A DNA stretch of 64,000 nucleotides from a virus (IMGVR_UViG_3300035670_000162:6428-70427); one strand, 5' to 3'. Shown: positions 2,230 through 45,737, numbered from the stretch's first letter. The notes: generated from the letters alone by a model not told the origin. Program-made: numbers and translations.

Positions 2230-2235
2230 CTTTTG

Positions 2236-6814: not shown

Positions 6815-7777
6815 GTGGCTAACACTATAAAAATTAAAAGCTCTGGGGTGACATCTAATACACCAGGGGCTTTGGAGCATGGGGAGCTTGCCATCAATTA
6901 TGCTGATGGCAAGCTCTACTATAAAAATAGTAGCAATACTATTGTTGAGTTTGGCGGAGGCGGTGGTGTAACAGACCACGGCGCCTTGACTGGTCTCGCA
7001 GACGATGATCATACACAATACCTGTTGGCTGATGGGACTAGAACCGCTACGTCTCTTACTGTTTCTGGTAATCTCACAGTAGATACTAATATGTTGTTTG
7101 TTGATTCCACAAACAACGAAGTAGGAATTGGAACCATATCGCCTACCACAAAGTTAGATATTCTCGGGCTGACTACTGAAGATCCTATTCTTTCTGTTCG
7201 TCATAACGGCGGCTCTGCTGGTCATGCCGGTATAGCCATGACGAGCACGGGATCGGGGGGCAGGACATGGACCCTCATTTCTGCCGATGCTGGGTATACA
7301 CATGGTGATGGCTTCCATGTTCTAAACAGCACCTCTGGTCACATGGTGAGCATAAAGGCTCTTGGAACCAATCTAGGTTCAATTGGTATCGGCACAACTT
7401 CGCCTTCAGCCGCCCTTGATGTCGTAGGTGACGCTGAGATCAATGGGAGTATGACTGTAACTGGCAACATCGTTTATACCCAAACGATGGACACGAAAAC
7501 CGCTTCCTATACGGTCGTGTCGTCAGATGTTGGCAAGCTCCTGTACATGAACAACGGTGCCAGCAACCACACGGTTACCGTGGACTCATCGACTGGGTTC
7601 TCAGTCGGCCAGAGGGTGGATATCCTCCGAACAGGTACTGGATCGGTGACTGTCGTGCAAGGGTCTGGGGCAACGGTCTATTACACCCCGGCGCTCACTC
7701 TTCGGGCGCAGAACTCTGCTGCGACTCTCGTTTGCACAGGCTCAAATCAGTACCATCTGATAGGAGACTTGGGCTGA
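6815..7777 (+). CDS. Second fibre protein (same N-terminal domain)
   Basis: IKIKSS...PGALEHGELAINYADGKLYY; VGIGTxSP repeats; C-terminal LRAQNSAATL...LIGDL. Confidence 0.7.
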   Translation: MANTIKIKSSGVTSNTPGALEHGELAINYADGKLYYKNSSNTIVEFGGGGGVTDHGALTGLADDDHTQYLLADGTRTATSLTVSGNLTVDTNMLFVDSTNNEVGIGTISPTTKLDILGLTTEDPILSVRHNGGSAGHAGIAMTSTGSGGRTWTLISADAGYTHGDGFHVLNSTSGHMVSIKALGTNLGSIGIGTTSPSAALDVVGDAEINGSMTVTGNIVYTQTMDTKTASYTVVSSDVGKLLYMNNGASNHTVTVDSSTGFSVGQRVDILRTGTGSVTVVQGSGATVYYTPALTLRAQNSAATLVCTGSNQYHLIGDLG

Positions 7778-8682
7778 TGTTGAGCAACCTTGGGATCATT
7801 GCGTCGGCTGTCGTACCCATCCCCGATCTTGTTGTCAACTATGTCGTGGTTGCAGGCGGTGGCGGTGGAGGCGGTGGTCGTGCCTCGTTCGGTGGCTCCG
7901 GTGGCGGTGCAGGAGGTTACCGCTCAACCGTTGGTACTTCGGGCGGTGGTGCTTCTGCTGAGAGTACCCTTACCTTGGCTACAGGGACTGCGTACAGCGT
8001 AACCATCGGCGCTGGCGGTGCTGGCGGTGGAGGAAATGCAAACGGTTCTGCGGGTTCGGGCACTACATTCCATACGATCACTTCGACTGGTGGTGGTCGC
8101 GGTGTTAGACCGAACGCAAACGAAGTACCTGGCGATGGCGGTTCTGGTGGCGGTGCTGGCGCTAACGACACGACCAGTCCTGGGTCTGGGACAACCGGGC
8201 AAGGTTATGCTGGCGGTACGACGTACAGCACTAGCCAGTCTGCCGCTGGTGGTGGTGGCGCTGGCGGTGTTGGCGGTCCTGCTGGTGGGTCCGGTGACAA
8301 TGGTGGTGACGGAGGTCTTGAAAAGACAATCGGATGGCCTGCCACTTCCATCTACTGGCTTGCTCATGGCGGCGGCGGTGCCTCGGACGACACAGTCACC
8401 GTCGGTTCGGGAGGCGACGGTGGTAACTCTGGTGGAACCGGCGGTGTTGACGGCGTAGGTGGCGGTCCTGGCGAGGCTAACGGCGGTGGTGGCGGTGGTG
8501 GTGGAGGGGCAGACCAAGCCGCAGGTGGTAGTGGAGGTAGCGGAGTGGTTTTCTTGTCCTTCCCAGAAGAGTACGATATTTCAACCTCTGGCTTGACCGT
8601 TAGCGTCAACACAACATATTTGGGCAACAGGTATGTCAGGATCACAGCCGGTACTGGCACTATTACTTGGGCGGTGGCGTAA
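7777..8682 (+). CDS. Glycine-rich fibre/receptor-binding-like protein
   Basis: VVAGGGGGG...GGGGAGG...GGSGVV pattern; ATG at 7777 overlaps upstream TGA. Confidence 0.7.
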   Translation: MLSNLGIIASAVVPIPDLVVNYVVVAGGGGGGGGRASFGGSGGGAGGYRSTVGTSGGGASAESTLTLATGTAYSVTIGAGGAGGGGNANGSAGSGTTFHTITSTGGGRGVRPNANEVPGDGGSGGGAGANDTTSPGSGTTGQGYAGGTTYSTSQSAAGGGGAGGVGGPAGGSGDNGGDGGLEKTIGWPATSIYWLAHGGGGASDDTVTVGSGGDGGNSGGTGGVDGVGGGPGEANGGGGGGGGGADQAAGGSGGSGVVFLSFPEEYDISTSGLTVSVNTTYLGNRYVRITAGTGTITWAVA

Positions 8683-33610: not shown

Positions 33611-34783
33611 GTGAAAACATGTCAAGCAGATGGTTGCAGATTACAATTTGAGCCTAACTCTGCGAATCAAAAATATGCAGATCCGTCTTGCAGAAAAAGT
33701 ATTGATTCGCTGGGAATCTGTAAGTTAAGAAAAGAGATTGGACTTGTAGAGATGCCTAAAGATGTATTGTCGGATGAAGTTCCGACGTCTGATTCAGACC
33801 TTCGTATTGCTTATACCAAGCTTGTTCAGGAATATGAAAAGCTTAAGTCTAAAAAGGATGATCTTGCTGATGCAGTTTATAGAGCAGTGATTGATACTAA
33901 GATTACACCACAAGCTGAACCAACACCTTCGCCGGTGAAGGTTAGGAAGAGAACCTCTTCAACTGAAGAGGTTGCTGTTGCGGTTATTGCTGACTGGCAG
34001 CTTGCTAAAATTACGCCAGACTATAATTCAGAAATATGTGAAAAGCGTATAGAGCAGTATGCTAATAAGATCATTGATCTAACTAATATCCAGAGAGCAG
34101 ATCATCCAGTTAATAAGCTGCATGTTTGGGCGTTGGGTGATATTGTTGAAGGTGAGCTTATTTTTCCAGGTCAATCTTTTCTGGTTGATGGGGGCTTGTA
34201 CCGTCAAGTAACTGTTGATGGCCCCAGGATTCTTAAAAATTTCCTCTCAAAGATGCTTGATAATTTTGATCAAGTTCATTTTACTGGAGTAATTGGTAAT
34301 CATGGAGCAATTGGCGGCCGAGGTCGTCGTGATCACGATCCAGAAACAAATGCTGACAGAATGCTGTATAGGATTGTAGATTGGATCTTTGAGAAAGAAA
34401 AGCGAATTACTTTTGATATCCCAGATGGTCGTGGGGAGAAGCATTGGTTCGCTGTGCCTGCAATTGGTAATTATAAGACTTTGCTTTGTCACGGCGATCA
34501 GTTCAATGGTTTGTCATCTTTCTATTCTTTCCAGAAGAAAGTGTATGGCTGGAAAGTTGGCGCTTTAGGTGAAGATTTTGATGATGTTTATATTGGGCAC
34601 TGGCATACTCCAACTAAAATGACATTTAACACTATTCAGGTTAGAGTTTCAGGAAGCCCGGAGTCGACAAACACTTATGCTATGGAAAGTTTAGCGGCTA
34701 TAGGCCGTCCTTCACAGCCTTTGATGTTTGTTCACCCAGAAAAGGGTATAGTTACAGCTGAATATAACTGCTGGCTAGATTAG
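33611..34783 (+). CDS. Calcineurin-like metallophosphoesterase with Cys-containing N-terminus
   Basis: ADWQ, GDIVEG, GNHG, HGD, GHWH motifs. Confidence 0.85.
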   Translation: MKTCQADGCRLQFEPNSANQKYADPSCRKSIDSLGICKLRKEIGLVEMPKDVLSDEVPTSDSDLRIAYTKLVQEYEKLKSKKDDLADAVYRAVIDTKITPQAEPTPSPVKVRKRTSSTEEVAVAVIADWQLAKITPDYNSEICEKRIEQYANKIIDLTNIQRADHPVNKLHVWALGDIVEGELIFPGQSFLVDGGLYRQVTVDGPRILKNFLSKMLDNFDQVHFTGVIGNHGAIGGRGRRDHDPETNADRMLYRIVDWIFEKEKRITFDIPDGRGEKHWFAVPAIGNYKTLLCHGDQFNGLSSFYSFQKKVYGWKVGALGEDFDDVYIGHWHTPTKMTFNTIQVRVSGSPESTNTYAMESLAAIGRPSQPLMFVHPEKGIVTAEYNCWLD

Positions 34784-34791
34784 GAGAAAAA

Positions 34792-34989
34792 ATGAGAAAT
34801 TTATATATTGATATGGCAGAAAGAGCGCTATGGACTGCCGTTCAGGCTTTTATTGCAGTTTGGATCATAGGCGACCCAAGCAGCGCTAAGTCTGCAGCAA
34901 TCGCTGGTGTTGCTGCAGCGCTCAGTGTCGTCAAGGGGTTTGCAGCCTCTAGGATTGGCGATAAGGAAAGCGCAGCCACTTTGCGATAA
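34792..34989 (+). CDS. r1t-like holin
   Basis: AERALWTAVQAFIA...AAALSVVK, two hydrophobic helices. Confidence 0.8.
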   Translation: MRNLYIDMAERALWTAVQAFIAVWIIGDPSSAKSAAIAGVAAALSVVKGFAASRIGDKESAATLR

Positions 34990-35037
34990 TTCTGTTGTTT
35001 TAGCCCCTCCGCACAAGAACTGTGATAAAATATTCAT

Positions 35038-35226
35038 ATGGATATTAAAGTCAAAATTCCTTTGAAATGTTCAAAGTGTGGAGGGGCTAAATACATTGAT
35101 GAGCCTTATCTTATTTCTGATACTTGGTTTGTTGATATTGTCTGTTTAAGCTGTGGTGACACCAAGATTGTTGAGCAATCTTTCTTGAAAAGTTTTATAT
35201 CTAAACTTCAAGGTGGTGTCTCATAG
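35038..35226 (+). CDS. Small zinc-ribbon protein
   Basis: CSKCGG...CLSCG. Confidence 0.7.
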   Translation: MDIKVKIPLKCSKCGGAKYIDEPYLISDTWFVDIVCLSCGDTKIVEQSFLKSFISKLQGGVS

Positions 35227-35669
35227 TGCTAACAGATAAAATTATTGTTAACAAATTTTACCTTTATGCTGGAGACATTCATAAAGTTAAAAAAATCCAA
35301 AAATCAAAAAATAAGATTATTTTGCAAAATATTAAATCTCTTAACTGTGTGGAGATGCCTATTGAAGGATCAGATCTTTTACTTGTTAGACTTTATACAA
35401 TTGGTGAGGTTTCAAAAATTGTTGAAAGGCGGGCTGACACGATAAGAAAATATGAAAAAAGCGGCCTCTTGGAGAAGCCGACGGAGTATAGTGGCTACGA
35501 TTCCTACAGTAGCTGGAGGTTCTATACAACTAAAGAAGTCCGTTACATTATGGATTTCTTTTCAGATCGCACTCCAGGCAGACCTTCAAGTCATCTCCAT
35601 ACATCTTGGAATGATTTGAAGTTACAAAATTTAAACAATAAAGTAACCACAATTAATAGGAGTTTTTAA
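35226..35669 (+). CDS. MerR-like HTH DNA-binding protein
   Basis: YTIGEVSKIVER.ADTIRKYEKSGLL...WRFYT. Confidence 0.8.
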   Translation: MLTDKIIVNKFYLYAGDIHKVKKIQKSKNKIILQNIKSLNCVEMPIEGSDLLLVRLYTIGEVSKIVERRADTIRKYEKSGLLEKPTEYSGYDSYSSWRFYTTKEVRYIMDFFSDRTPGRPSSHLHTSWNDLKLQNLNNKVTTINRSF

Positions 35670-35670
35670 A

Positions 35671-35874
35671 TTGGAAAATTCAAATGTAGAAATCTGGGCA
35701 TCAATTGGTATTACTAAGAATCTTGGTAACTACGAATCTCTTCGGCTTGACGCTGGTGCCAGAGTTAAGGCGTCGTCGGAAAATGATGAAAAAGCATGGG
35801 CTGAATTGTGGAGGGCTGTCGATGAGCAAATTGAGTCTAGGCTTCGGGAGCTAGATAGCGAAAATGGTAGCTGA
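35671..35874 (+). CDS. Conserved small phage protein
   Basis: GITKNLGNYESLRLD motif; TTG start with SD AGGAG. Confidence 0.7.
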   Translation: MENSNVEIWASIGITKNLGNYESLRLDAGARVKASSENDEKAWAELWRAVDEQIESRLRELDSENGS

Positions 35875-36160
35875 CTGGCTTTCAGAGGCTTTATGCAATA
35901 ACCATGTAAACCAATCATATTGGATTTCCTCTAATTATGAGGAGATTAAAATTGCAAAATCAATCTGTGAGAAATGCCCTGTCCGACTAGAATGCCTGTA
36001 TTCAGCAATTTATGAAAAATCAGAATTTGTCGGTGTCAACGGCGGACTATCTGAGATAGAGTTCCTTATAAGGACATGGGAGGAAGCGGAGTCGGAAGAT
36101 GAAACTAACTGGAAGCGATCTGATCAACTTATTCAGGGACTGTTCAGAGAAATCGCATAA
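35864..36160 (+). CDS. whiB: WhiB-family Fe-S transcription factor
   Basis: W..EALC...AKSICEKCPVRLECL...GVNGG. Confidence 0.85.
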   Translation: MVADWLSEALCNNHVNQSYWISSNYEEIKIAKSICEKCPVRLECLYSAIYEKSEFVGVNGGLSEIEFLIRTWEEAESEDETNWKRSDQLIQGLFREIA

Positions 36161-36404
36161 ATTATTTATTCCGGACAACCCTCGTCAGTCAGAGATAGCT
36201 GATAGCCTTGTTAAGCACTATGATGGCGAGTTGCTTGAAAAAGCTGTAAAGTGGTATTTTGAAAATAGGCAAGGTCCATTTCTTATTTTTGATTTTGCCA
36301 TTGAATCAAGGCAGATTGTTGAAAAAGTAAAATATGAAAACGAAGCTAAGCTTCGCTTTCAAGATATCGTAGAAGAAACCCGTAAAAGATTGGAAAACTC
36401 TTGA
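36099..36404 (+). CDS. Hypothetical protein upstream of helicase (possible loader)
   Basis: 101-aa ORF overlapping both neighbours. Confidence 0.6.
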   Translation: MKLTGSDLINLFRDCSEKSHKLFIPDNPRQSEIADSLVKHYDGELLEKAVKWYFENRQGPFLIFDFAIESRQIVEKVKYENEAKLRFQDIVEETRKRLENS

Positions 36405-37621
36405 ACTACGAAATCAAACTGTTGAATTCAATTATTGATTCAACAAATTATGTTGACGCTGTCAACTCAGGTGTTGAAAATGTTTTTGTTCAATATCGTG
36501 ATGTGTGGAACTTTATCGTTTCTCATTACGATGATCATAAAAAGGTTCCATCCAAAGATACAGTAAAGTCACATTTCTCAGACTTTGAATACATGAATAC
36601 TCCTGAACCTTTGGAGTATTATGTTGATCTTGCTAAAAAGGAGTCGCTGGCCTTTCAGACAAGGCAGATTGTTGCAAAAGCTCACTCTTTAATTGGTGAG
36701 ATGGGTCCTAAAGAAGCTCTCTCCTACTTGATGGAGAGCACCAGTAAACTTTATAAGTATTCAAGTGCTTTAAAAGATACTGATCTTGTTGGAGAGTGGC
36801 GAGATAGATATGATGATCTTCTTGAAAGATCTAAAAATCCAGATAAGCAGTATGTAGGGATACCTAGTGGGATTGATGTCATTGATAAGACTTTTGGTGG
36901 ATGGCAAGAGGGCGACTTCATTGTACTACTTGGCTGGACTGGCGTAGGTAAGTCGTTTATTGCGAGGCTCTTTGCGGTTAACGCATGGCGTGCTGGCTAC
37001 CGACCTATGATCATTTCTCTTGAGATGAATAAGAAGCAAGAAGGTCAACGGCTTGATACTTTGCTTAATAATGGTGAGGGGTATTTCACCAATACAGACT
37101 TGATTAAAGCTAATCCATCAATTGTTGGAACCTATGAAGGCTGGGCTGAGCAAACATTTGGTGGTAAGCAGCCTATTTACTTGATCACATCAGAGGGTCT
37201 TGAAACTGCAGACCAGAATATGGTTCAGGCTAAGATTGACCAGTATCAGCCTGATCTTGTTATTCTTGACTATCATGGCCTTTTTGACGATGCGACTGGT
37301 GCAAGAAATGAAACTGAAAAGGCAAAAAATCTATCAAAGGCATTTAAGAGAATCGCTGTAAAAAACAATGTGCCGATTATCGATGTTGCTGCTGTAACGA
37401 TGTCTGACGGTCATGGCGATAGACCTCCTGAACTTGAAGAAGTCGCCTGGTCTAAGCAATTGGCTTATGATGCCGATCTTGTGTTGGCGATTCACAGAGA
37501 ATTTAACTCTGATCTTTTTCAAGTTGTTTCGAGAAAAGTTCGTAGGGCAACACACTTCGGCTTTTATTTAAGATGGGATCTTGAGACAGGAAAGTGGGGT
37601 GAAGAATGGGACGTAGGGTAA
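36401..37621 (+). CDS. dnaB: DnaB-like replicative helicase
   Basis: Walker A GWTGVGKS, ISLEM, VILDY, YDADLV. Confidence 0.92.
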   Translation: MNYEIKLLNSIIDSTNYVDAVNSGVENVFVQYRDVWNFIVSHYDDHKKVPSKDTVKSHFSDFEYMNTPEPLEYYVDLAKKESLAFQTRQIVAKAHSLIGEMGPKEALSYLMESTSKLYKYSSALKDTDLVGEWRDRYDDLLERSKNPDKQYVGIPSGIDVIDKTFGGWQEGDFIVLLGWTGVGKSFIARLFAVNAWRAGYRPMIISLEMNKKQEGQRLDTLLNNGEGYFTNTDLIKANPSIVGTYEGWAEQTFGGKQPIYLITSEGLETADQNMVQAKIDQYQPDLVILDYHGLFDDATGARNETEKAKNLSKAFKRIAVKNNVPIIDVAAVTMSDGHGDRPPELEEVAWSKQLAYDADLVLAIHREFNSDLFQVVSRKVRRATHFGFYLRWDLETGKWGEEWDVG

Positions 37622-37800
37622 ACGATAATGTTGTCCATGTAGAATGCGGAGAGGCTGTTGATATTGAAGCAGTCGTACGTTTACGGCAATGGATTGAAGA
37701 TATTATTAGTGAAAAGGTTGAGTTTTCAAAGACAAACTTAATCACAGACTATGATCGTGAGAGGCAACTCTTTGGATTCAAAATTGTTTTCATCGGGTAA
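37606..37800 (+). CDS. Small hypothetical protein
   Basis: ORF bridging helicase and primase. Confidence 0.5.
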   Translation: MGRRVNDNVVHVECGEAVDIEAVVRLRQWIEDIISEKVEFSKTNLITDYDRERQLFGFKIVFIG

Positions 37801-38701
37801 TATACAAAAGTCAGTATTAGATCTTTTAAATAGCAATAATATTGAAGTTCATACGCAGTCCGGTACTGAGGTTGCGATATATTGCCCATTTCATGACAAT
37901 ACTAATAGTCCTGCTTGCTACATAAATTTAAAAACAGGATTGTGGCAATGCTTCAACCCCTCTTGCGGCAAAAAAGGTAATTTTAGACAGCTTTATAAGC
38001 ATATTACTGGTAAAACATTTAGTAAAGAGTGGATTCTTGATCCTATCAATCTGCAAAGACAGTTGGACTCGTATTTAGATGAGACTGCTCAATCAGAGAC
38101 GCTTTCAATAGAATCTGTTGCGATTGATTATTCATCTTTAGATTCTTTAGATAAACTATCAACTCTTATTGATAGAGGGTTTAGTTTAGAAACTCTGGAG
38201 CATTTCGAGATAGGGTATTCAAAAGTTAAAGATAGGATAACGATACCTGTTCGTGATTCGCAGTATAAGCTTGTTGGTTTGATAGGCCGTGCAATTCATG
38301 AATGGCAAGATCCAAGATATCTATACAACAAAAGCTTCAGAAGAGCTGACGTATTATTCAATATACAGAATGCTAAACTGTTTGACTCTGTAATTGTCTG
38401 TGAAGGGAGTTTAGATGCTATAAAAGTAAAACAATCTGGTTTTGAAAACGTTGTAGCAACTCTTGGAGCTAAAGTTTCACATAATCAGATTAGTCTAATG
38501 AGTAAATATTTTGATCAAATCATCATATTTTCTGACAATGATGATGCAGGACGCGAGATGCAGCGTGTTATAATTGATCAATGCTGTGGCAAGGACTTGT
38601 TTACCGTTAAAATACCTGACGGCATAAAAGATCCTGGCGACATGACAGAGCATCAAATACAGGATGCTATCATTAATAAAATAAATCACATTGGAGTATA
38701 A
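37751..38701 (+). CDS. dnaG: DNA primase (CHC2 zinc finger plus TOPRIM); start uncertain
   Basis: CPFHD...CF..SC; VCEGSLDA; DNDDAG; KDPGD. Confidence 0.9.
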   Translation: MIVRGNSLDSKLFSSGNIQKSVLDLLNSNNIEVHTQSGTEVAIYCPFHDNTNSPACYINLKTGLWQCFNPSCGKKGNFRQLYKHITGKTFSKEWILDPINLQRQLDSYLDETAQSETLSIESVAIDYSSLDSLDKLSTLIDRGFSLETLEHFEIGYSKVKDRITIPVRDSQYKLVGLIGRAIHEWQDPRYLYNKSFRRADVLFNIQNAKLFDSVIVCEGSLDAIKVKQSGFENVVATLGAKVSHNQISLMSKYFDQIIIFSDNDDAGREMQRVIIDQCCGKDLFTVKIPDGIKDPGDMTEHQIQDAIINKINHIGV

Positions 38702-38702
38702 A

Positions 38703-39347
38703 ATGACATTTTCAAGCATTAAAACACTTAAGGATATCGAAAAGAGCATCCCCCAGTCAGGTTCTTCTGGGGGGACTGGTAAGAAGTTTTTCAACCTTCA
38801 ATCAGGAGACACTTACAGAATCAGATTCCTGCAAGAGCTTACAGAGGATTCTCGCGGGTACAGTGAAGACGCAGGGACAGGCATTGTTGTTCCTGTAGTT
38901 ACATCACCAATCAATTGGAAGTGGCGGTGCGCCTCTACTTTATCAATGGCTGAGCATGGCTATCGGTGCTGGGCTTCTGAGCAGATTAATCAGGATTCAC
39001 GCTGGCGTCCGAAGCCTCATCTTCTAATCAACGTTGCTGTTGAGATTGATGGGGTTTGGGAGTCTCGTATTCTTGATACAACTTTCAACCAGCGACATGT
39101 TGGCCTGATGATCATGGAGTACGCTAAGGAATTTGGTACGATTACAAATCAGACTTTTAAGTATAGCCGTACCGGGTCCGGCGCTCAGGATACAAATTAC
39201 AGCTTGATCCCGCTGGGAGCGTCTGATCCTGACCCGTCAATTGCAAATCTTCCGCTTCATCAGCTCGACAATGTTTACATGGTGCTTGCTTATGAAAAGC
39301 AGAAGACGTTTTTGACGACTGGTGAATTTAACGTAGACAGTTGGTGA
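38703..39347 (+). CDS. Single-stranded DNA-binding protein (gp32-like)
   Basis: RIRFLQE...KYSRTGSG..DTNYSL; position after primase. Confidence 0.7.
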   Translation: MTFSSIKTLKDIEKSIPQSGSSGGTGKKFFNLQSGDTYRIRFLQELTEDSRGYSEDAGTGIVVPVVTSPINWKWRCASTLSMAEHGYRCWASEQINQDSRWRPKPHLLINVAVEIDGVWESRILDTTFNQRHVGLMIMEYAKEFGTITNQTFKYSRTGSGAQDTNYSLIPLGASDPDPSIANLPLHQLDNVYMVLAYEKQKTFLTTGEFNVDSW

Positions 39348-39350
39348 TTT

Positions 39351-39418
39351 TGGTATCATAAAGTTTTGTGGGCGGTGTGTCTTGCATTATTCACTTTATC
39401 GCTTTGCGGACGCCCACA
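39351..39418 (+). promoter_or_regulatory. Extended -10 promoter followed by a leader hairpin
   Basis: TGGTATCAT then TGTGGGCG...CGCCCACA inverted repeat. Confidence 0.55.
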
Positions 39419-39441
39419 TTCTTTAATTTTTTGAGGTAATT

Positions 39442-39960
39442 ATGGCTACTGTATGTTTTGATATTGATGGTGTTATCGCGGATATCGCAGCTGGCATCAA
39501 TGTCGCTTTGGACCGGCTTGGCATTGAAAATTATGACTATGCTCATTGGCTTGTTGGTGGTTTTGAGGATGAGTTGGCTTCTGATGTTTTTGGTGATGTT
39601 TTGTTTTGGAAGAATTTGAAGCCTTTTGTTTCTTCTTGGTATGTTGTGAATTCTTTGTGGGGTCGCGGGTTTGATGTTGTTTTTGTGACTGCTCGTAGTT
39701 CTGATGCTTCTCGCGGTTGTGTGCATGACTGGCTGGATGATTGGAAGTTTCAGTATTCTGATGTTGTTTTTGCTGATGTTGGTTCTAAGATTGATGTTTT
39801 GCGTGATTGTGGTGGGTTGTTTTTAGTTGAGGATAATCCTTATGAGGTTCGTTCTGTTGTTGATGGTGGTGGTAAGGCTTTTCTGAGGCGTGCTTGGTAT
39901 AATTCCCAGTTTTGGGATGATTTTGATTCTGTTGGATCTTTGTTTGATTTGGAGGTTTGA
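39442..39960 (+). CDS. HAD-family 5'(3')-deoxyribonucleotidase-like protein
   Basis: FDIDGVIAD, VTAR, K, VEDNP, AWYN. Confidence 0.82.
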   Translation: MATVCFDIDGVIADIAAGINVALDRLGIENYDYAHWLVGGFEDELASDVFGDVLFWKNLKPFVSSWYVVNSLWGRGFDVVFVTARSSDASRGCVHDWLDDWKFQYSDVVFADVGSKIDVLRDCGGLFLVEDNPYEVRSVVDGGGKAFLRRAWYNSQFWDDFDSVGSLFDLEV

Positions 39961-39961
39961 T

Positions 39962-40111
39962 ATGTCTGGTAGGTCTAGAATTTTTTCTGTTGCCGAGACT
40001 TTGGTTGTTGCTGGTATACCTGTTGTTTGTACTTTTTTGTATAGTTGGAAGCTTGGTATTGTTTGGTTTGTTTTTACTGCGTTGTCTGGTTCGGGTCGTT
40101 CTGTTAAGTAG
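39962..40111 (+). CDS. Small membrane protein
   Basis: SD GGAGG; hydrophobic 49-aa ORF. Confidence 0.5.
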   Translation: MSGRSRIFSVAETLVVAGIPVVCTFLYSWKLGIVWFVFTALSGSGRSVK

Positions 40112-40116
40112 GTTTT

Positions 40117-40722
40117 GTGACTGTTTATGCTTTTGGTGACAGGACGAGTAATGCTGATCTTGTTGTTGATTTAGCTGAGATTGGTTATTTTCCTGGTTCT
40201 GTTTTGGATGTGACGTATGGTTTGGGTCGTTGGTGGTCTAAGTTTTGTCCGGAGGTGTTTGTTGGTTGTGATTTGGTTGTGGAGAAGTCGCCGTTAGGGG
40301 TTTCGGTGGATTTCACAGATTTGCCTTTTGGTGATTGTTCTTTTGATACGGTGGTTTTTGATCCTCCTTATAAGTTGAATGGTCGTTCTGGCGAGTTTGC
40401 TGGTGATGATTCTTATGGGGTGGGTGGCTCTTATGTTTCTGCTGCTGATCGTCTTGAGTTGATTTATGCTGGTGTTGATGAGTGTTGTCGTGTTGCTTCG
40501 AAGTTTGTTGTTTTGAAGTGTCAGGATCAGGTTACGTCTGGTCGGATGGTGTGGCAGACTCGTCTTTTTTCTGATCGTGCTGAGCTTTTTCCGGGGGTTC
40601 GTTTGGTAGATTCTTTGATGGTTCGTGGGTTTAGGAAGCAGCCGGGTAATAAGCGGCAGCTTCATGCTCATCGTGATTATTCTACTGCTTTAGTGTTTAG
40701 GAAGGGTTCTGGCCGTGGTTGA
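40117..40722 (+). CDS. SAM-dependent amino-methyltransferase (DNA m6A/m4C type)
   Basis: VLDVTYGLG, DFTDLPF, VFDPPY. Confidence 0.78.
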   Translation: MTVYAFGDRTSNADLVVDLAEIGYFPGSVLDVTYGLGRWWSKFCPEVFVGCDLVVEKSPLGVSVDFTDLPFGDCSFDTVVFDPPYKLNGRSGEFAGDDSYGVGGSYVSAADRLELIYAGVDECCRVASKFVVLKCQDQVTSGRMVWQTRLFSDRAELFPGVRLVDSLMVRGFRKQPGNKRQLHAHRDYSTALVFRKGSGRG

Positions 40723-43700
40723 TTTTGTTCATTTGCATTGTCATAGTGAGTATTCTTTGTTGGATGGGATGTCTACTCCTTTGGATATTGCTAGGGTTGC
40801 GTCTTCTAATGGCCAGTTTGCTGCGGCTATTACTGATCATGGGACGATGGGTGGTGTTCTGAAGTTTCAGGATGCTTGTGATTCTTTTGGTGTGCGTCCT
40901 TTGTTTGGTATTGAGGCTTATTTTGTTCCTTCTGTTGCTCGCGATTCTGATTCAAAGCAGGAACGTTTTCATTTGATTCTTCTCGCTAAGAACGATGAGG
41001 GCTTAAGAAAGTTGTTTAAGGCCAATAGTGTTGGTTGGGGTGACAATTTTTATTACAAGCCTCGTTTGGATTTTGATTTGTTGGAGGATTTAGTTGATGG
41101 TGATGTTGTTGCTTTGTCTGGGTGTATGGGTGGCGCTATTTCTAAGGCGATTGAGCGTGGTGATTTAACTGAAGCGGAGCGGTTGTCTGAGCGCTTTATC
41201 AGTATTTTTGGTGATGATTTTTATTATGAGGTTCAGGCTTGGAATCCTGTGTCTTTGAATAAGTCTTTGATTGATCTTGCTTCTTCTTTTGGGAAGAAAG
41301 TTGTTGCTACTGCTGATTGTCATTTCCCTACTGCTCATGATGCTCATGATGAAGAAGTTTTGCTGATGATTTCTCAGTATCCTTCTTTGAATACGGCGCA
41401 GGTTCGTAATGCTAAGGAGAAGTTGTCTGGTGGTGGTAATGTTACTGAGATGATTAATAGGATGTATCCGGATCGTTTTTTGCGGTTTGATGAGATTAAT
41501 CCTTATGTTGCCGATGCTTCTGAAGTGATGTCGTGGTTTGCGGATAAAGGTTTTCATGACGTTTCTTATTTTGAAAATACTGTTGAGGTTGCGGATAAGT
41601 GTTCTGCTAGGTTGAAGAAGAAAAATAATCTTTTGCCGAAGTATATTAAGGCTTTGGATTCCGATCAGTATTTGATGGATTTGTGTTTGAATGCTATTGA
41701 AGACAAGGGGTTGTCTGGTCAGGTTTATTTGGACCGTCTGGGTGAAGAGATTTCTATTATTTCTTCATTGGGGTTTGCCGACTATTTCTTGATGGTTTGG
41801 GATTTGGTTAAGTGGGCTGATATGAACAATATTGGTCGTGGTCCTGGCCGTGGTTCTGTTGGTGGTTCTCTTATTGCTTTCTTGTTGGATATTTCTAAGG
41901 TTGATCCGATTAAGTATGGGTTGCTTTTTTCTCGTTTTTTGAATCCTGACCGCAATGATTATCCTGATATCGATTTGGATTTTGAGGATAAGCGGCGTGA
42001 GTTGGTGAAGCAGTATTTGTCTGATCGTTGGGGGTCTGATAATGTTGCTGCTATTGCAACTTATGGTGTTTTTAAGCCTAAATCTGTTATTAAAGATGTC
42101 GCCCGTGTGTTTCAGGTTCCTTTTGATGAAACGAATAGTGTGACACCATTTTTTGAGACTCTTGATGAGTTGCAGTCTACTGATAAAGGTAAGGTGTTTA
42201 TTAAGAAGTATCCGGATGTTCTGCCTGTTGCCAAGAAGCTTGAGGGCCGTATCCGAAATACTGGTGTTCATGCTGCCGGTATGGTTGTTTCTTCTGTTCC
42301 TTTGACTGAAATTTGTCCTGTTGAGAGTCGCAAGAATGCTTCCGGTGATGGTCGTTCTCCTGTTACATCTTTTGATATGGAGGACGCTGAGTCGATTGGT
42401 TTGATCAAAGTTGATATTCTTGGGTTGAAGACTGTTTCTGTTATCAAGGACTGCATTGAAAAGATCCGTGAGATTCATGGTGTCGATGTCACAGAGAAGT
42501 CTTTAGCACTTGACGATGTTGCCGTTTTCCAGAATTTTAATGATGGCAATACTGTCGGTGTATTTCAGGCTGATGCTGCTGCTTATCGCAATTTGATTGA
42601 TCGAATGGGTATCGACAATTTTAACGATTTGGTAGTGTCCAACGCCTTGGTCCGGCCTGGTGCGCTTCTTTCTCAGGGTCAGGCTTATATTGATTGTAAA
42701 AAGGGAGTTGCTTCCCCGAAGTATCCTCATGAAGTCGTAAAAGATATTTTGTCTGACACTTATGGCACAGTTATCTTTCAGGAACAGCTTATGCAAATGG
42801 CTGTTGTTCTTGCCGATTTCTCTTGGTCTGAGGCTGATAAGCTTCGTAAGATTATTGGTAAGAAACGTGATGCTGCAGGTTTTGATGAATATAGAGAAAA
42901 GTTTTGTAGCAATACTTATTTGACTCGCAAGCAGTCTGAGAAGATTTGGGCTGATTTTGAGCTTGCTGCTTTGTATATGTTTAACAAGTCGCACGCTGTC
43001 GCCTATTCGATGCTCTCATATCAGACGATGTGGTTGAAGATTAATTATCCTCGTGAGTTTATTTGGTCGATGCTTTCAAATGAAAGTGAGAAGAGTAAAA
43101 TTACGGCTTACTTGATGGAGGCTGAACGTCTTGGGATTACTGTTTTGCCTCCTGATGTAAATGCTTCTGACGAATCCTTTTCTATTGATGAGAATGGTAT
43201 TCGTTTTGGTTTGAAGAACATTCTTGGATGTGGCAAGAACGCCATTGCTGAGATTTTTAAACATCGTCCTTATTCTTCTTATGATGAGTTTGTCAATAAA
43301 TGTAGTAAAACATCAGTTAAAGCTCCTTTGAAAGAAAACATGGAGAAGGTGGGGTGTTTTCAAAATATTGGTTATATTTCTTCTTATGATTTTGAGAAAT
43401 ATTATTTACCAATTCTTGGTTTTGCTTTCAACATGTCATCTTCAAATAACGAGATGGATGAGTTTGTTGAACCTATTGACGGGTTCCATGAGATTTATTC
43501 TGATCTGAGAATGGTGAAAGCTGTTATTAGGTCAACTAAGAAGACCCCGAAATATTTGCGTGTGGAGATGGAGGACCAGACAGCGTCTGTCAGCGTTTTC
43601 TGTGATAGAAATGCTGAGATCGCAAACAGGGATTTTTTGTACTGTCTTATCGGTGACAGAACTTTACATATGTTCTGTGATGCTTACGATTATGTTGGTT

Positions 43701-44089
43701 CTGATCTATATAATCTGACTAAGATCAAAAGTCTTAACAAGAATCATGAGTATTCATGGTTGTATGATACTGGGCTTGGTGATGCGTTTTCTGATCGTAG
43801 CCTTTTGTATATCTTTAGTACAAGAACTTTTGTTACTGCTAAAGGTAAAGATATGGCTAATGTGTATGCATGGGATGGAGAGCGTACTTTGAAAATTGTT
43901 GTATTCCCATCTATGTATGCAAAAATGCGACATTTGATTGGTGGGACCGGGTGGTTTGCAGCTAAGCTGAATGACGTTAAAGATTTGGAAGTAGCGGCTA
44001 GGCTTGATTCTTACACTTTTGCAAATGAAAATTCACTGATCACAATTGAAGATTACATTAATAGAAAAAACTTGAAAGCGCCAGAGTGA
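40715..44089 (+). CDS. dnaE: DNA polymerase III alpha subunit (family C)
   Basis: HLHCHSEYSLLDG PHP domain, GRGS, PDIDLDF, HAAG, FNKSHAVAY; no intein seen. Confidence 0.95.
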   Translation: MVDFVHLHCHSEYSLLDGMSTPLDIARVASSNGQFAAAITDHGTMGGVLKFQDACDSFGVRPLFGIEAYFVPSVARDSDSKQERFHLILLAKNDEGLRKLFKANSVGWGDNFYYKPRLDFDLLEDLVDGDVVALSGCMGGAISKAIERGDLTEAERLSERFISIFGDDFYYEVQAWNPVSLNKSLIDLASSFGKKVVATADCHFPTAHDAHDEEVLLMISQYPSLNTAQVRNAKEKLSGGGNVTEMINRMYPDRFLRFDEINPYVADASEVMSWFADKGFHDVSYFENTVEVADKCSARLKKKNNLLPKYIKALDSDQYLMDLCLNAIEDKGLSGQVYLDRLGEEISIISSLGFADYFLMVWDLVKWADMNNIGRGPGRGSVGGSLIAFLLDISKVDPIKYGLLFSRFLNPDRNDYPDIDLDFEDKRRELVKQYLSDRWGSDNVAAIATYGVFKPKSVIKDVARVFQVPFDETNSVTPFFETLDELQSTDKGKVFIKKYPDVLPVAKKLEGRIRNTGVHAAGMVVSSVPLTEICPVESRKNASGDGRSPVTSFDMEDAESIGLIKVDILGLKTVSVIKDCIEKIREIHGVDVTEKSLALDDVAVFQNFNDGNTVGVFQADAAAYRNLIDRMGIDNFNDLVVSNALVRPGALLSQGQAYIDCKKGVASPKYPHEVVKDILSDTYGTVIFQEQLMQMAVVLADFSWSEADKLRKIIGKKRDAAGFDEYREKFCSNTYLTRKQSEKIWADFELAALYMFNKSHAVAYSMLSYQTMWLKINYPREFIWSMLSNESEKSKITAYLMEAERLGITVLPPDVNASDESFSIDENGIRFGLKNILGCGKNAIAEIFKHRPYSSYDEFVNKCSKTSVKAPLKENMEKVGCFQNIGYISSYDFEKYYLPILGFAFNMSSSNNEMDEFVEPIDGFHEIYSDLRMVKAVIRSTKKTPKYLRVEMEDQTASVSVFCDRNAEIANRDFLYCLIGDRTLHMFCDAYDYVGSDLYNLTKIKSLNKNHEYSWLYDTGLGDAFSDRSLLYIFSTRTFVTAKGKDMANVYAWDGERTLKIVVFPSMYAKMRHLIGGTGWFAAKLNDVKDLEVAARLDSYTFANENSLITIEDYINRKNLKAPE

Positions 44090-44778
44090 TGACTTTTATT
44101 ATTAGTAATAAGTTTGGAAGTATAGAGTATTTTGATAATGACGAAGAGATGTTAAAACAGAAGCAAGATAATTTATTTTTTGAGCAAAATTTCGTGCTAG
44201 ATAATTTAAGTGATTTTATAAAAGCGTCCTCTGTAGTTCTAGATGTGGGTGCTCATTGTGGCTCACACACGATTCTTTATAAGCGAATAAATCCAAATTG
44301 TAAGATTTATGCTTTTGAGCCTCAAGCTGCTATGTATAGTTTGCTTGTAAAAAATGTGAAGTCTAATAATCTTGAAGATGTCCATTGTTATAATAATGCA
44401 GTTGGTCATTTTGTTGGTGACGCTGAGATGAATAAGTTTTCAGAAGATGGCTCTAACGCTTTTAAAAATGCTTATTATGATGATGAAAATATTTTCAATC
44501 TAGCCGGGATCTCTATTGGATCTGGTGGTGAGCGTGTCAAGATGATTACGATTGATAGTTTGAAAATGTCTTGTGATTTTATAAAGATTGATGTTGAAGG
44601 TTATGAGCCTTATGTTGTTAGTGGCGCTTTTGAAACAATAAAAAAGTGTCGTCCGGTTATTTGTTATGAAAATAATCACAAGTCTTGCGACGCTGAGTGG
44701 ACTGTTTCTGATATGCTTCATGACATCGGTTATTCAATAGAGAATTCCGATGGCGAAAATTGGATAGCGATCCCCTAA
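44086..44778 (+). CDS. FkbM-family methyltransferase
   Basis: LDVGAHCG, YAFEP, IKIDVEGYE. Confidence 0.88.
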   Translation: MMTFIISNKFGSIEYFDNDEEMLKQKQDNLFFEQNFVLDNLSDFIKASSVVLDVGAHCGSHTILYKRINPNCKIYAFEPQAAMYSLLVKNVKSNNLEDVHCYNNAVGHFVGDAEMNKFSEDGSNAFKNAYYDDENIFNLAGISIGSGGERVKMITIDSLKMSCDFIKIDVEGYEPYVVSGAFETIKKCRPVICYENNHKSCDAEWTVSDMLHDIGYSIENSDGENWIAIP

Positions 44779-44795
44779 TAGATTAAGGAGTTTTA

Positions 44796-45737
44796 ATGTT
44801 ATTTGTTGATAAGCGTAAAGGCGATACCGTCCCTATTCATGAGGTTATTCCAACACCTAGCCTTGGTCTAAACCTTGCGCTAGGTGGAGGTTTATATACT
44901 GGCGCAACACATTTATTTTGGGGTACACCATCGGTTGGTAAGACAACTATGTGCTTCAGAATTCTCGCTCAGGCCCAGAAAATGGGGTATCGACCTGTCA
45001 TCGTTGATTCTGAATATTCTTATTCTGAGCAGTACGCTGAAAAGTGCGGCATTGATATTAATGATGTGGTGCTTGTGCAGTCTACTGTGGTTGAAGATAT
45101 TCTAAGACATTTGACTGGCTACCTAAACCATCCAGATGAAAAGCATATTTTCTTATTTGATAGTCTTTCAAATATTATCAAAGAAGAGTTTTATGATAAG
45201 CCAGACGGTGGCAAAGCTATGGGTTTACAAGCTAGATCTCAAGGCTACTTTCTCCAAAAGCTAGTAAATCATCTTCATAAAGAACGAAATATCATGCTTT
45301 TTATCGCCCATCAAACGATTGATCTAAGTGGAATGTATGCTGTGACTAAAGCTAAGATGGGCAACACAGTCCATCACAATATGCATAATATTGTGAAACT
45401 CTTTCTGTCTATGTCTCAGAAAGAGATGGATAGAGAAGATCGTACCAACAAGATTACCAGCCAGAGGGCGTCTTGGACTATAGAGAAGACTAAACAGCTT
45501 CCTACAATTGGAACACAGGGCTACTATTACGTTCTTCCTCAAGAGGGGCGTATTGATCAAAGGCGTGAGCTGATAGAAATTGCAATTGAAAATGATATTA
45601 TTCAAAGAAGAGGAGCTTGGTACTCATATAAAGAAAATAAATGGAATGGTATGAATTCGATTGATCTGTCCGATTCAGATATTATGAATATTCAAAATGA
45701 AATTATGAATGGAGGAACTGAAAATGAAGAGGGATGA
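44796..45737 (+). CDS. recA: RecA-like recombinase
   Basis: IPTPSLGLNLALGGG, GTPSVGKTT, FDS, GAWYSY. Confidence 0.9.
   Translation: MLFVDKRKGDTVPIHEVIPTPSLGLNLALGGGLYTGATHLFWGTPSVGKTTMCFRILAQAQKMGYRPVIVDSEYSYSEQYAEKCGIDINDVVLVQSTVVEDILRHLTGYLNHPDEKHIFLFDSLSNIIKEEFYDKPDGGKAMGLQARSQGYFLQKLVNHLHKERNIMLFIAHQTIDLSGMYAVTKAKMGNTVHHNMHNIVKLFLSMSQKEMDREDRTNKITSQRASWTIEKTKQLPTIGTQGYYYVLPQEGRIDQRRELIEIAIENDIIQRRGAWYSYKENKWNGMNSIDLSDSDIMNIQNEIMNGGTENEEG

Follow-up and report, generated by a model that had tools for sequence, protein, structure and literature searches.

The DNA analysed here is a window of 64,000 nt taken from a 70-kb (70,427-bp) virus record (IMGVR_UViG_3300035670_000162) of a tailed phage which has not been cultured. 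The search gave no relative in culture either, and the best matches in the phage database were Streptomyces phages with 70-73% identity over about 180 nt of dnaE. To the right of an SSB gene, the + strand carries a tract of keto bases (G+T) which represents a single-copy, intense strand skew over four to six co-oriented replication genes (Table 1). The sequence-only reading had described a bias over four genes. The block extends over the genes for a HAD-like protein, a membrane protein of 49 aa, a DNA methyltransferase and DnaE, and the tail of the tract reaches an FkbM-type methyltransferase gene in addition. The 49-aa gene lies in the same frame as an ORF at 39890-40111, and a similar sequence is present in the relative L016. 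The phage also codes for RecA and two junction resolvase-like proteins adjoining the block.

Table 1. Features along the keto tract, with positions counted from the first nucleotide of the window
Feature	Position	Strand	Remarks
SSB gene	38691..39347	+	phrog_9721, E 4.9e-26; last gene without the bias before the block, 0.65 G/T at third positions
TGGTATCAT motif and hairpin, then T-rich run	39351..39418	+	intergenic, upstream of the true edge
HAD-like phosphatase/nucleotidase-type gene	39442..39960	+	phrog_420, phrog_415; holds the left edge
Keto (G+T) block	39538..45000	+	sharp 5' edge, then roughly linear decay
Small 49-aa hydrophobic (membrane) protein gene	39962..40111	+	47/50 codons end in G/T
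DNA methyltransferase gene	40117..40722	+	GTG start; phrog_24333, E 2.9e-12
DnaE-type DNA polymerase III alpha gene	40715..44089	+	GTG start; Pfam PHP, DNA_pol3_alpha, finger, HHH_6
FkbM-type methyltransferase gene	44086..44778	+	PF05050, E 1.4e-16; gradient tail, G/T third positions 0.72
RecA-like recombinase gene	44796..45737	+	PF00154; 0.62 in the window = background, 0.80 in relative G001

Strand composition, edge and decay

The strand block was confirmed and is stronger than first described. The earlier hand counts proved exact: in the 60-nt lines at 39661, 40021 and 40201, A occurs 4, 7 and 6 times and G+T 46, 49 and 49 times, compared with 17 A in the line at 38101. Per 1 kb, the G+T share rises from 0.51 at 38 kb to 0.66 at 39 kb and 0.725 at 40 kb, and falls to 0.67, 0.61 and 0.58 at 41, 42 and 43 kb. 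The peak value of 0.759 lies 6.4 SD above the other 1-kb windows of the 70-kb genome (mean 0.534, sd 0.035). At 39.75-40.5 kb, the skew calculated per 500 nt goes up to 0.50 for GC and down to -0.58 for AT, with G+C remaining at 0.39-0.45.

Both limits given previously, 39,348 and 43,300, had to be revised. A maximum-likelihood change point of the third codon positions places the left edge at 39,537-39,540, in codon 32/33 of the HAD-like gene, where the share of G/T third positions rises from 0.65 (n=250) to 0.95 (n=390; Fisher p 1e-23). To the right, the fade goes on until background is reached at about 45.0 kb. Per 500 nt from the edge, G/T third positions amount to 0.95, 0.96, 0.92, 0.92, 0.89, 0.80, 0.75, 0.77, 0.71, 0.70, 0.66 and 0.62; the decay is roughly linear and one-sided over about 5.5 kb in the window, and the left edge is only a few codons wide. 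The gradual fade within dnaE was reproduced, from 0.94 to 0.58 per 100 codons. Since edges lie inside genes and the fade crosses gene borders, the bias is positional and not gene-specific, as had been proposed.

A promoter plus hairpin had been taken as the start of the block. The edge does not coincide with them but lies 120-190 nt further downstream, within coding sequence. TGGTATCAT is found at 39351-39359, about 187 nt before the edge, and the arms of the hairpin at 39367-39374 and 39411-39418. The hairpin folds with -22.5 kcal/mol (z -1.62), a value equalled by 11 of 200 shuffles; motif and hairpin look like the terminator of the helicase-primase-SSB unit. A consensus scan of 38.6-41.2 kb gave no sigma-70-like site on the + strand, and no iterons were found at the edge region. 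The edges in relatives lie at other codons, also inside coding sequence, and no sequence common to the edges of different lineages was detected. Likewise, no 6-mer departed from synonymous-codon shuffles in six sequences (largest mean z 1.7), so that a selected motif was not found.

All codon positions take part in the bias. The G/T shares at positions 1, 2 and 3 are 0.77, 0.55 and 0.90 in the HAD-like gene and 0.71, 0.54 and 0.95 in the DNA methyltransferase gene, compared with about 0.54, 0.44 and 0.60 elsewhere, and at fourfold sites of the methyltransferase gene A and C are reduced to 0.02 and 0.03. The enrichment in Val, Gly and Phe that had been described is a real shift of unequal size: in the three small block genes versus 16 other genes, it is 2.0-fold for Val, 1.8-fold for Phe and 1.3-fold for Gly. 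In the same comparison Trp (2.7-fold) and Cys (3.5-fold) are raised, and Ile (0.37-fold) and Asn (0.36-fold) reduced.

These properties bear on a cause at the level of RNA or translation, such as selection for low-structure mRNA, for few Rho-binding (C-rich) or RNase sites, or for a codon/tRNA preference in early replication genes. The biased strand is indeed the sense strand, the bias runs along the direction of transcription of genes which are all co-oriented, and a transcript poor in C and rich in G would be unfavourable for the loading of Rho. However, with RNA parameters the + strand is predicted to fold as stably in the block as outside (-22.9 vs -23.7 and -21.7 kcal/mol per 100 nt). Furthermore, edges and fades are intragenic, the pattern being indifferent to gene borders and codon position, and the first and second codon positions shift as well, the G/T share of the first being 0.71-0.77 compared with about 0.54. 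G-ending twofold codons take the place of the A-ending ones usual in this genome, and the two tRNAs of the phage, Asn-GTT and Arg-TCT, do not account for the pattern. We consider selection on RNA or translation very unlikely.

Inheritance among relatives

Each of the 14 clade-A sequences shows the block, with its start between the SSB gene and dnaE; 13 of them are further records from other metagenomes which carry it at the homologous place. Its extent varies. One relative has 95-100% G/T-ending codons over the entire 3.4-kb dnaE, and in G001 the decay takes about 8 kb, with 0.98 in dnaE, 0.90 in FkbM and 0.80 in recA, followed by 0.75, 0.73, 0.73, 0.71 and 0.64. In the relative L005, a gene of opposite, A+C-rich bias is located immediately upstream. 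Among 56 other non-identical dnaE sequences, nine from more distant relatives have a block which starts inside dnaE, at aligned codon about 307 (L024/51/52, L013/42) or about 265 (L055-57, L066); in the remaining 47, no 100-codon bin exceeds 0.75.

An abrupt compositional edge is what the junction of a horizontally acquired segment or of an assembly or sequencing artefact would look like. The proteins are nevertheless ordinary orthologues with uniform identity along the gene. Biased segments share 0.70-0.76 amino-acid identity with clade A and their unbiased sisters 0.70-0.75, and each biased lineage is nearest to its own unbiased sisters in every segment. Neither a sharp right end nor a discordant phylogeny was seen, as the right side fades and the segment-wise identities are uniform. 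An assembly chimera is excluded because the 13 relatives from other records share the block. Contigs from two runs also span the edge without differences; since these runs may be the source sample, they give no independent support. An explanation without any local process is hardly conceivable on these grounds. The bias is heritable, and as the protein identity profiles contain no imported segment, the recoding arose in place. The tract is neither a horizontal transfer nor an assembly chimera, and it is not a sequence motif or a codon-anticodon effect.

Substitution pattern and equilibrium composition

The excess of A>G and C>T expected in the sequence-only reading is pronounced. At third positions of the L024 lineage, 62 ancestral A gave 41 G and 18 T, and 18 of 19 C became T, whereas controls show A>G at 6-14 of 62-73. 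The reverse changes are rare, with G>A 2/50, T>C 4/171 and T>A 0/171 versus 17-25, 23-24 and 18-20 in controls. At twofold sites of the L024 block, 26 of 27 A changed to G and 10 of 11 C to T. Fourfold sites, where ancestral A was inferred, give a different picture for four biased lineages: A>T (20) outnumbers A>G (13) and only 4 of 37 A are kept, compared with 12 of 27 in controls. By our own estimate from the fourfold data, the relative rise is about 8 fold for A>G and about 2 fold for A>T. Over the long term, T>G is raised as well (16/171 vs 4-7 of about 180 in controls). The spectrum is therefore not pure deamination, as A is lost to T besides G.

Equilibrium models were built on baseline rates from 13 triplets with 1,219 polarised changes. 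In extreme blocks, fourfold sites hold A 0.002-0.019, C 0.005-0.053, G 0.23-0.27 and T 0.69-0.75. If only the transitions A>G and C>T are raised, 0.53 is predicted for G and 0.45 for T. A joint rise of A>G, C>T and A>T by 100-300 fold yields A 0.002-0.005, C 0.001-0.004, G 0.28 and T 0.71, with the equal multiplier on three rates being a post hoc choice and one of four models tried. In a fixation-bias model, a scaled selection coefficient of 4-6 brings A and C to less than 1% each, with 0.34 for G and 0.64 for T.

Following the sequence-only reading, one may assume an R-loop formed by a transcript from the upstream promoter, or a strand-displacement origin by which the parental + strand becomes single-stranded. 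Deamination (C>T, A>G), spontaneous or enzymatic, would then write the bias alone, as on the heavy strand of vertebrate mitochondria. The bases lost are just the two that can be deaminated, A and C, and their depletion is specific to one strand and graded by position; A>G and C>T are strongly raised, and the tract is located in a replication module directly after the SSB gene. On the other hand, the observed G/T composition is missed by the transition-only prediction and ancestral A at fourfold sites is replaced by T more often than by G, so that C>T and A>G alone do not produce the bias. In addition, the edge lies past the motif and hairpin, falls at other codons in relatives and has no promoter-like site on the + strand in the region scanned. 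The mitochondrial heavy-strand gradient, which extends over the whole genome, is driven by transitions and follows the time spent single-stranded, also stays well behind the strength of the bias here, where A+C goes down to 1-2% or less. Like that strand, the tract is G+T-rich with effects on third codon positions and amino-acid usage; unlike it, the tract is local and much stronger, A>T has a part in it, and its equilibrium holds far more T than G. The vertebrate gradient is dealt with in PMC1794132 and PMC3269014. Deamination alone is improbable in our view. What stands of the origin interpretation is the positional, heritable and one-sided geometry of a tract that arose in place; an edge at the promoter and hairpin and a deamination-only spectrum do not.

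The main rival of the start-up synthesis discussed below, which we regard as somewhat unlikely, is a fixation bias without a local mutator, where A and C variants of the + strand are disfavoured, and more so nearer the start. It might act through selection on a cumulative strand property, e.g. a structure-free ssDNA intermediate or fewer deaminable or excisable exposed bases. Alternatively, it might act through gene conversion which starts at a recombination hot spot and is biased towards one strand, a link also proposed for GRINS. In line with a fixation bias, A at fourfold sites is given up for whichever other base. In L024, positions 1 and 2 show no rise of nonsynonymous A>G plus C>T (24 vs 22 and 24 in controls), and only the reverse G>A plus T>C are fewer (6 vs 13 and 19). 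Differences between G and T at fourfold sites within blocks number 54 (only five close pairs, three of which are not independent), which matches the 64 expected if T>A never persists; 99-153 are expected if T>A occurs and passes to G. The selection coefficient given above suffices to bring A and C below 1%, and RecA and the two resolvase-like proteins are encoded beside the block. With DNA parameters, the predicted folding energy of both strands is about halved in the block (-4.7/-4.1 vs -9.8/-8.5 kcal/mol per 100 nt), but this follows from composition alone and is therefore not evidence of selection. Against a fixation bias, we know of no function that requires kilobases of a strand free of amino bases from mid-gene on, and by our own reasoning a mismatch-repair rule that always favours the keto bases of one strand is hard to formulate. 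The relative rise of A>G above that of A>T suggests a mutational component, and the raised T>G also speaks against fixation alone. GRINS, in turn, are tied to gene conversion and are often found in replication, recombination and repair genes (PMC8256042), which would agree with a fixation bias.

Known skews and a possible start of DNA synthesis

The closest published phenomenon is GRINS, and the tract is the same kind of compositional recoding without the repeats. By the definition in PMC8256042, a GRINS is longer than 500 bp, and its GC and TA skews each average >0.15 in absolute value. With the window settings of that paper (150-nt windows, step 30), 39,538-43,300 has a mean GC skew of 0.333 and a mean TA skew of 0.352. 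GC and TA skews correlate with Pearson r 0.60 in the block (n=120 windows) and 0.056 elsewhere (n=2153); the values reported for GRINS are 0.70 inside and 0.09 outside (PMC8256042). A skew that is strongest at third codon positions and the gains of Gly (1.3-fold), Val (2.0-fold), Cys (3.5-fold) and Trp (2.7-fold) are likewise of the GRINS type. GRINS are defined as duplicated regions with >80% DNA identity within a cluster and are tied to gene conversion of paralogous modules (same source). In contrast, the tract has no second copy in the genome: blastn of 39,348-44,100 against the 70,427-bp record (word size 11, E 1e-3, dust filter off) returned the self match only. Single-copy skewed regions are reported by the GRINS authors too. 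According to PMC8256042, GRINS share with the tract abrupt edges, functional encoded proteins, a skew most marked at third positions, and a frequent location in replication, recombination and repair genes, with phages being mentioned. As described there, GRINS contain both polarities within 1 kb, whereas the tract has one polarity over 5-8 kb, a fixed start and a monotonic decay, and it is stronger, with up to 100% G/T-ending codons over 100-codon bins. The tract is a compact natural example of the published, so far unexplained "intense nucleotide skew".

A keto excess on the strand reading away from a start, with a jump at the start, is also known from bacterial chromosomes, where leading strands have a replication-associated excess of G and T, and from GC-skewed promoters prone to R-loops (PMC3269016, PMC10030826 and PMC3787257). 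Compared with the skew described there, the amplitude of the tract is several fold higher (GC skew 0.5 vs a genome background of 0.13), and the tract is local (kilobases), one-sided and decaying, whereas the bacterial skew is a step over a whole replichore.

We tentatively favour, at somewhat less than an even chance, that the block is the footprint of unidirectional start-up DNA synthesis. In each replication cycle, a strand-asymmetric DNA transaction would begin at a fixed nucleotide within the replisome gene module, primed by an origin, a nick or recombination, and would run rightward over a variable distance. To the right of this start, the + strand would be the new strand of start-up synthesis, and the parental + copy a displaced single strand. 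Low-fidelity synthesis would misincorporate and then gradually hand over to the replicase, like Pol I at ColE1, and A and C of the + strand would be lost by A>G, C>T and A>T. Because they would not be regained, third positions would reach 95-100% G/T and variable residues would drift to Val, Gly, Phe, Cys and Trp. While the tract with its sharp edge and decay, its inheritance and origin in place, and the pattern of substitutions are shown, the start of synthesis at the edge, its direction and the enzyme or lesion behind the bias are inferred; we favour misincorporation over deamination of the displaced strand. A Pfam scan of 43 window proteins found no DNA polymerase besides DnaE that could take the start-up role, which would need a host enzyme.

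The fixed start with one-sided decay on the displaced or new strand of a rightward start fits a unidirectional primed origin. To our knowledge, no natural keto tract is known downstream of ColE1-type origins. For error-prone Pol I on the leading strand, the ColE1 spectrum within 800 nt comprises A>G 32 vs T>C 9, C>T 140 vs G>A 29 and A>T 18 vs T>A 7, and replacement of Pol I by Pol III downstream of the switch is gradual over at least 1.3 kb, as given by Allen et al. (NAR 2011; PMC3167613). In both systems the bias sets in sharply at one nucleotide position and then declines step by step, in ColE1 over more than 1.3 kb; on the strand reading along synthesis, A>G, C>T and A>T are more frequent than the complementary changes in both. 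The equilibrium observed here fits, by our modelling, a joint rise of these three changes, which is the asymmetry found downstream of the ColE1 RNA/DNA switch. The ColE1 case is a laboratory spectrum of an engineered error-prone Pol I, whereas the tract is an evolved composition.

Several observations stand against start-up synthesis. The edge has no direct sign of an origin, nick or promoter, the tests of mutation versus fixation bias lean to fixation bias, and the composition predicted by the fixation-bias model is not very far from the observed one. The local excess needed is large, about 100 fold. Moreover, both polarities on one strand, in GRINS as described in PMC8256042 and in L005, are not explained by a single one-directional start.

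In a wider and more doubtful sense, keto-skew tracts might be scars, readable in the sequence, of recurrent low-fidelity or strand-exposing synthesis from a fixed nucleotide. The sharp edge would then mark the start point, i.e. an origin, a nick or recombination-primed repair synthesis, the polarity would give the direction of synthesis, and the decay length the distance over which the high-fidelity replicase takes over. If this is true, GRINS in polyketide synthases would go back to the same process in the form of repair synthesis in gene conversion, this phage family would hold an equivalent of the Pol I footprint at ColE1 that evolved in nature, and starts of replication and recombination would become mappable in uncultured genomes by sequence alone.

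The keto-rich tract and its phage setting

The window stems from a tailed phage and covers bases 6,428-70,427 of the parent IMG/VR record, which has 70,427 bp and is judged 67% complete. Its gene products include a portal, a prohead protease, a tape measure of 2,320 aa and a class II ribonucleotide reductase, and it carries a replication and recombination module with a DnaB-like helicase, a DnaG-like primase, SSB, DnaE, RecA, a Holliday-junction resolvase and a RuvC-like protein. Nearly every gene is carried on the + strand. No close relative was found in the phage database, where the best matches were about 180 nt of dnaE with 70-73% identity to Streptomyces phages.

A sequence-only reading had drawn attention to a G+T-rich, A-depleted tract on the + strand, and all four of its hand counts proved exact. 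Counted per kb, G+T is 0.51 at 38 kb, climbs to 0.725 at 40 kb and has dropped to 0.58 at 43 kb with G+C unchanged, and the highest 1-kb window (0.759) lies 6.4 SD over all other windows of the genome. Third codon positions account for most of the skew: G- or T-ending codons have a share of 0.90 in the gene for a HAD-like protein, 0.95 in a DNA methyltransferase gene and 0.81 in dnaE, compared with about 0.53-0.66 elsewhere, and A at fourfold sites falls from about 0.27 to 0.02-0.09. First codon positions are affected as well (G/T share from about 0.54 to 0.71-0.77), and the encoded proteins are enriched in Val, Phe, Trp, Cys and Gly and depleted in Ile and Asn.

The left edge was placed by a maximum-likelihood change point at 39,537-39,540, at codon 32/33 of the HAD-like gene, with a step from 0.65 to 0.95 (p 1e-23). 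It thus lies 120-190 nt downstream of the TGGTATCAT motif and the hairpin at which the tract had been thought to start. Beyond this edge, the proportion of G/T at third positions falls almost linearly to the right and reaches background level at about 45.0 kb, beyond the previously proposed limit of 43,300. The tract begins within coding sequence and its decay runs across successive genes, so the view that it is positional and not gene-specific was right. Iterons or other repeats were not found at the edge, nor was a promoter-like site on the + strand; a comparison with Rfam gave no family there, the single match being at chance level (E 0.48).

Several further features were recorded in the window (see table). 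Within the tract, long ORFs of up to 237 aa are present in alternative frames and on the complementary strand. These are by-products, since depletion of A on the + strand strips stop codons from the six frames and thus leaves long spurious ORFs on both strands, which could mislead gene callers. A perfect extended -10-like sequence lies within the HAD-like gene, at its 3′ end, and codes for Trp-Tyr-Asn there, and sites of this type (TGGTAYAAY) occur in 10 of the 11 loci of the window's own clade (clade A) examined among the relatives L002-L016. In one of them, L016, the tract starts about 28 nt upstream of such a site, which is a candidate internal promoter. Three successive genes of the tract start with GTG, at 40,117, 40,715 and 44,086. 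The dnaE start codons, tentatively assigned by a simple start rule, are GTG in 11 of 14 sequences of the biased clade (TTG 2, ATG 1) and GTG 26, ATG 28 and TTG 2 in 56 others.

An AT-rich intergenic region with palindrome units and direct repeats could be an operator or origin region. The small genes at 55,100-63,900 are diffusely keto-rich (G/T third positions 0.65-0.87, peak at 59-61.6 kb) without a sharp edge, and the homologous 76-84 kb of G001, a 94-kb relative, are also raised (0.74-0.85). The gene of the dCMP/cytidine deaminase family (PF00383, E 1e-14; weaker match to MafB19-like deaminase; phrog_174) probably belongs to ordinary nucleotide metabolism and is recorded because a deaminase bears on any deamination model.

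Features recorded in and around the keto-rich tract, in window positions
Feature	Position	Strand	Remark
tRNA Asn (GTT)	2,156-2,230		phage gene
Extra ORF in tract	39,391-39,726	-	by-product
Extra ORF in tract	39,890-40,139	+	by-product
Extended -10-like sequence TGGTATAAT	39,895-39,903		in HAD-like gene
Extra ORF in tract	40,294-40,671	-	by-product
Extra ORF in tract	41,165-41,557	-	by-product
Extra ORF in tract	41,765-42,478	-	by-product
Extra ORF in tract	42,503-42,994	-	by-product
AT-rich intergenic region	54,664-54,942		possible operator or origin region
Three TTAACGTTA(A) palindrome units	54,746-54,806		within AT-rich region
Three TTCCCGAC-type direct repeats	54,812-54,847		within AT-rich region
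tRNA Arg (TCT)	57,419-57,492		phage gene
Deaminase family gene	61,576-62,037		probably nucleotide metabolism

Distribution of the tract among relatives

A search with DnaE as query yielded 168 related viral stretches, from which 80 loci were kept (L002-L081); the records stem from metagenomes of freshwater and the subsurface. After removal of eight identical copies, L065 and sequences below 1,100 aa, the full-length dnaE genes, 70 of them non-identical, were aligned by codon. The tract is present in all 14 members of the window's clade (protein identity about 80%), and it starts between the SSB gene and dnaE. In L011 and L016, 95-100% of the codons in each 100-codon bin end in G or T across the whole dnaE, and in G001, the contig of L016, this share decays over successive genes from dnaE onwards (0.98, 0.90, 0.80, 0.75, 0.73, 0.73, 0.71, 0.64). 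Among the 56 other dnaE sequences, nine have a tract that starts within dnaE over a few codons, at aligned codon 307 approximately (L024, L051, L052, L013 and L042) or 265 approximately (L055-L057 and L066), and 47 have no 100-codon bin above 0.75. The complete genome G005, from an unbiased lineage, is flat throughout at 0.52-0.63. The start position therefore varies by lineage and falls in coding sequence, with at least three different starts in the family. At the internal dnaE edges no conserved nucleotide element was found; the codon windows of highest conservation are at other places, where the protein has conserved motifs.

Because relatives carry the tract at the homologous place, it is a heritable feature of real phage populations and not an artefact. 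An assembly chimera, which the earlier reading had named as a possible source of error, is ruled out by its presence at this place in 13 other records. In addition, assembled contigs from two sequencing runs, X1 (34,000-42,850) and X2 (34,000-41,910), span the edge with 0 differences, although these runs may be the source sample; the pieces from X3 (38,738-39,352 and 39,773-41,205) do not bridge it.

Horizontal import of a biased segment, for which a sharp right edge and a discordant phylogeny had been suggested as signs, is ruled out by protein identity along dnaE, which is uniform, and the right side fades. The biased segments of L024 and L013 show 0.70-0.76 identity to the strongly biased clade and their unbiased sisters 0.70-0.75, and every biased lineage is nearest to its unbiased sisters in all dnaE segments. 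As the biased segments are no nearer to the biased clade than their sisters are, the same orthologous codons have been rewritten in place. Taken with the shared records, these uniform identities make transfer or artefact a highly improbable origin of the tract. As to whether their tracts arose once or twice, L024-type and L013-type sequences carry the same replacement at five of five informative fourfold sites, defined as sites with A in all or all but one of four reference lineages and a replacement absent from these references. The tracts of the L055 type and of the window's clade are distinct, as their start positions differ.

A mirror-image A+C-rich left arm, as for a bidirectional origin, was searched for in L002-L081 and seen only in L005, where a gene of opposite polarity (7,441-8,061; G+T 0.36, most codons ending in A or C) lies just upstream of the keto-rich tract. 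Separately, the first 3,500 nt of G001 differ strongly in character, being G+C-rich with ORFs rich in Arg and Pro and one 1-kb window at G+T 0.72; this end of the contig may be chimeric or derived from a host.

Substitution spectrum and possible causes

Changes in the L024 lineage were polarised against four unbiased relatives, at least three of which had to agree. At third positions within the tract, 62 ancestral A gave 41 G and 18 T, and 18 of 19 ancestral C became T. Reverse changes are nearly absent (G>A 2/50, T>C 4/171, T>A 0/171); in two control lineages they number 17-25, 23-24 and 18-20, respectively. The excess of C>T and A>G expected by the sequence-only reading is thus present. Its mechanism, deamination of a strand displaced at a promoter, finds only partial support: both changes are strongly raised, but A>T adds to them and the edge lies downstream of the proposed motif. 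Fourfold sites leave both routes silent, and there A>T outnumbers A>G, with ancestral A in four biased lineages replaced by T 20 times and by G 13 times and kept at 4 of 37 sites (controls: T 12, G 2, kept 12/27).

The fourfold composition of the most extreme tracts is A 0.002-0.019, C 0.005-0.053, G 0.23-0.27 and T 0.69-0.75, compared with A 0.31, C 0.13, G 0.12 and T 0.44 in unbiased relatives. Three models were run with baseline rates taken from 1,219 polarised changes in 13 triplets of unbiased relatives. Raising A>G and C>T 100 fold, as by deamination, predicts G 0.53 and T 0.45, far from the observed values; together with the A>T excess this renders deamination as the sole cause unlikely. 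A fixation bias against A and C predicts G 0.34 and T 0.64. Raising A>G, C>T and A>T together predicts G 0.28 and T 0.71 with A and C below 0.5% and comes nearest to the data of the three; since its form was picked once the data were known, the agreement is a fit rather than a test. The spectrum points to the footprint of a start-up polymerase or to fixation bias rather than to pure deamination. Our leading explanation, held tentatively, is that the tract is the footprint of unidirectional start-up DNA synthesis: synthesis would begin at a fixed site in the replisome module, run one way and leave its mark on composition.

The main rival, somewhat doubtful but to be taken seriously, invokes a fixation bias that selection or biased conversion would bring about. 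Its model lies further from the observed composition than the three-rate model, whereas two comparisons lean towards it. Nonsynonymous A>G plus C>T changes are not raised in the L024 lineage (24 versus 22 and 24 in controls), and nonsynonymous reverse changes are fewer (6 versus 13 and 19). Within the tracts, five close pairs differ by G<->T at 54 fourfold sites, near the 64 expected if T>A never persists and below the 99-153 expected if T>A occurs and goes on to G. The pairs are few, three of them have lineages in common, and protein conservation is also higher in the part of DnaE that the tract covers; these tests are therefore a real objection and not a decision. In close pairs, twofold sites show 2-10 fold less transition diversity within the tracts, a difference compatible with either bias, because at such divergences a strong mutation bias would by our own calculation have reached saturation.

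Selection at the RNA level is quite improbable. Folded with RNA parameters, the + strand is as structured as its flanks, by which a less structured mRNA was rejected as an explanation. The predicted DNA folding energy is down by half on both strands because of base composition. A Chi-like or other selected motif was likewise rejected, since no 6-mer exceeded synonymous shuffles in six sequences (top mean z 1.7).

Known systems and implications

Two published systems resemble the tract. GRINS, regions of intense nucleotide skew, are described as having intense, correlated GC and TA skews, strongest at third positions, with enrichment of Gly, Val, Cys and Trp; they are common in replication, recombination and repair genes, and they were published in 2021 without a mechanism (PMC8256042). 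The tract has skews of 0.33 and 0.35 with r 0.60 inside and 0.06 outside, in the range that defines GRINS. However, the second copy, the defining repeat of GRINS, is absent from the genome, and unlike GRINS the tract has a single polarity and a monotonic decay. It is therefore best classed as GRINS-like in its working but outside the group. The opposite-polarity gene of L005 resembles the sign changes described for GRINS.

In ColE1 replication, error-prone Pol I leaves the leading strand, downstream of the RNA/DNA switch, with more A>G, C>T and A>T changes than complementary ones, and the mutation frequency drops as Pol III replaces Pol I over at least 1.3 kb (PMC3167613). The geometry of the tract and its three favoured changes match this Pol I footprint, which comes from an experimental system. 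Literature searches on phage keto skew, on strand asymmetry with deamination and on phage GRINS turned up no phage tract of this kind; GRINS in phage and replication genes are reportedly listed in the supplements of the GRINS paper.

The phage family presents a simpler form of intense skew, being single-copy and of one polarity with a nucleotide-sharp start and a measurable decay. Lineages with a strong, a weak or no tract form natural contrasts within one gene and differ in their starts, so that the cause can be tested on the same orthologous codons. The case thus contributes a clean polar form in which biased and unbiased lineages are comparable within a single gene. If the edge marks a start of replication or recombination, such tracts would newly locate these sites in uncultured viruses.
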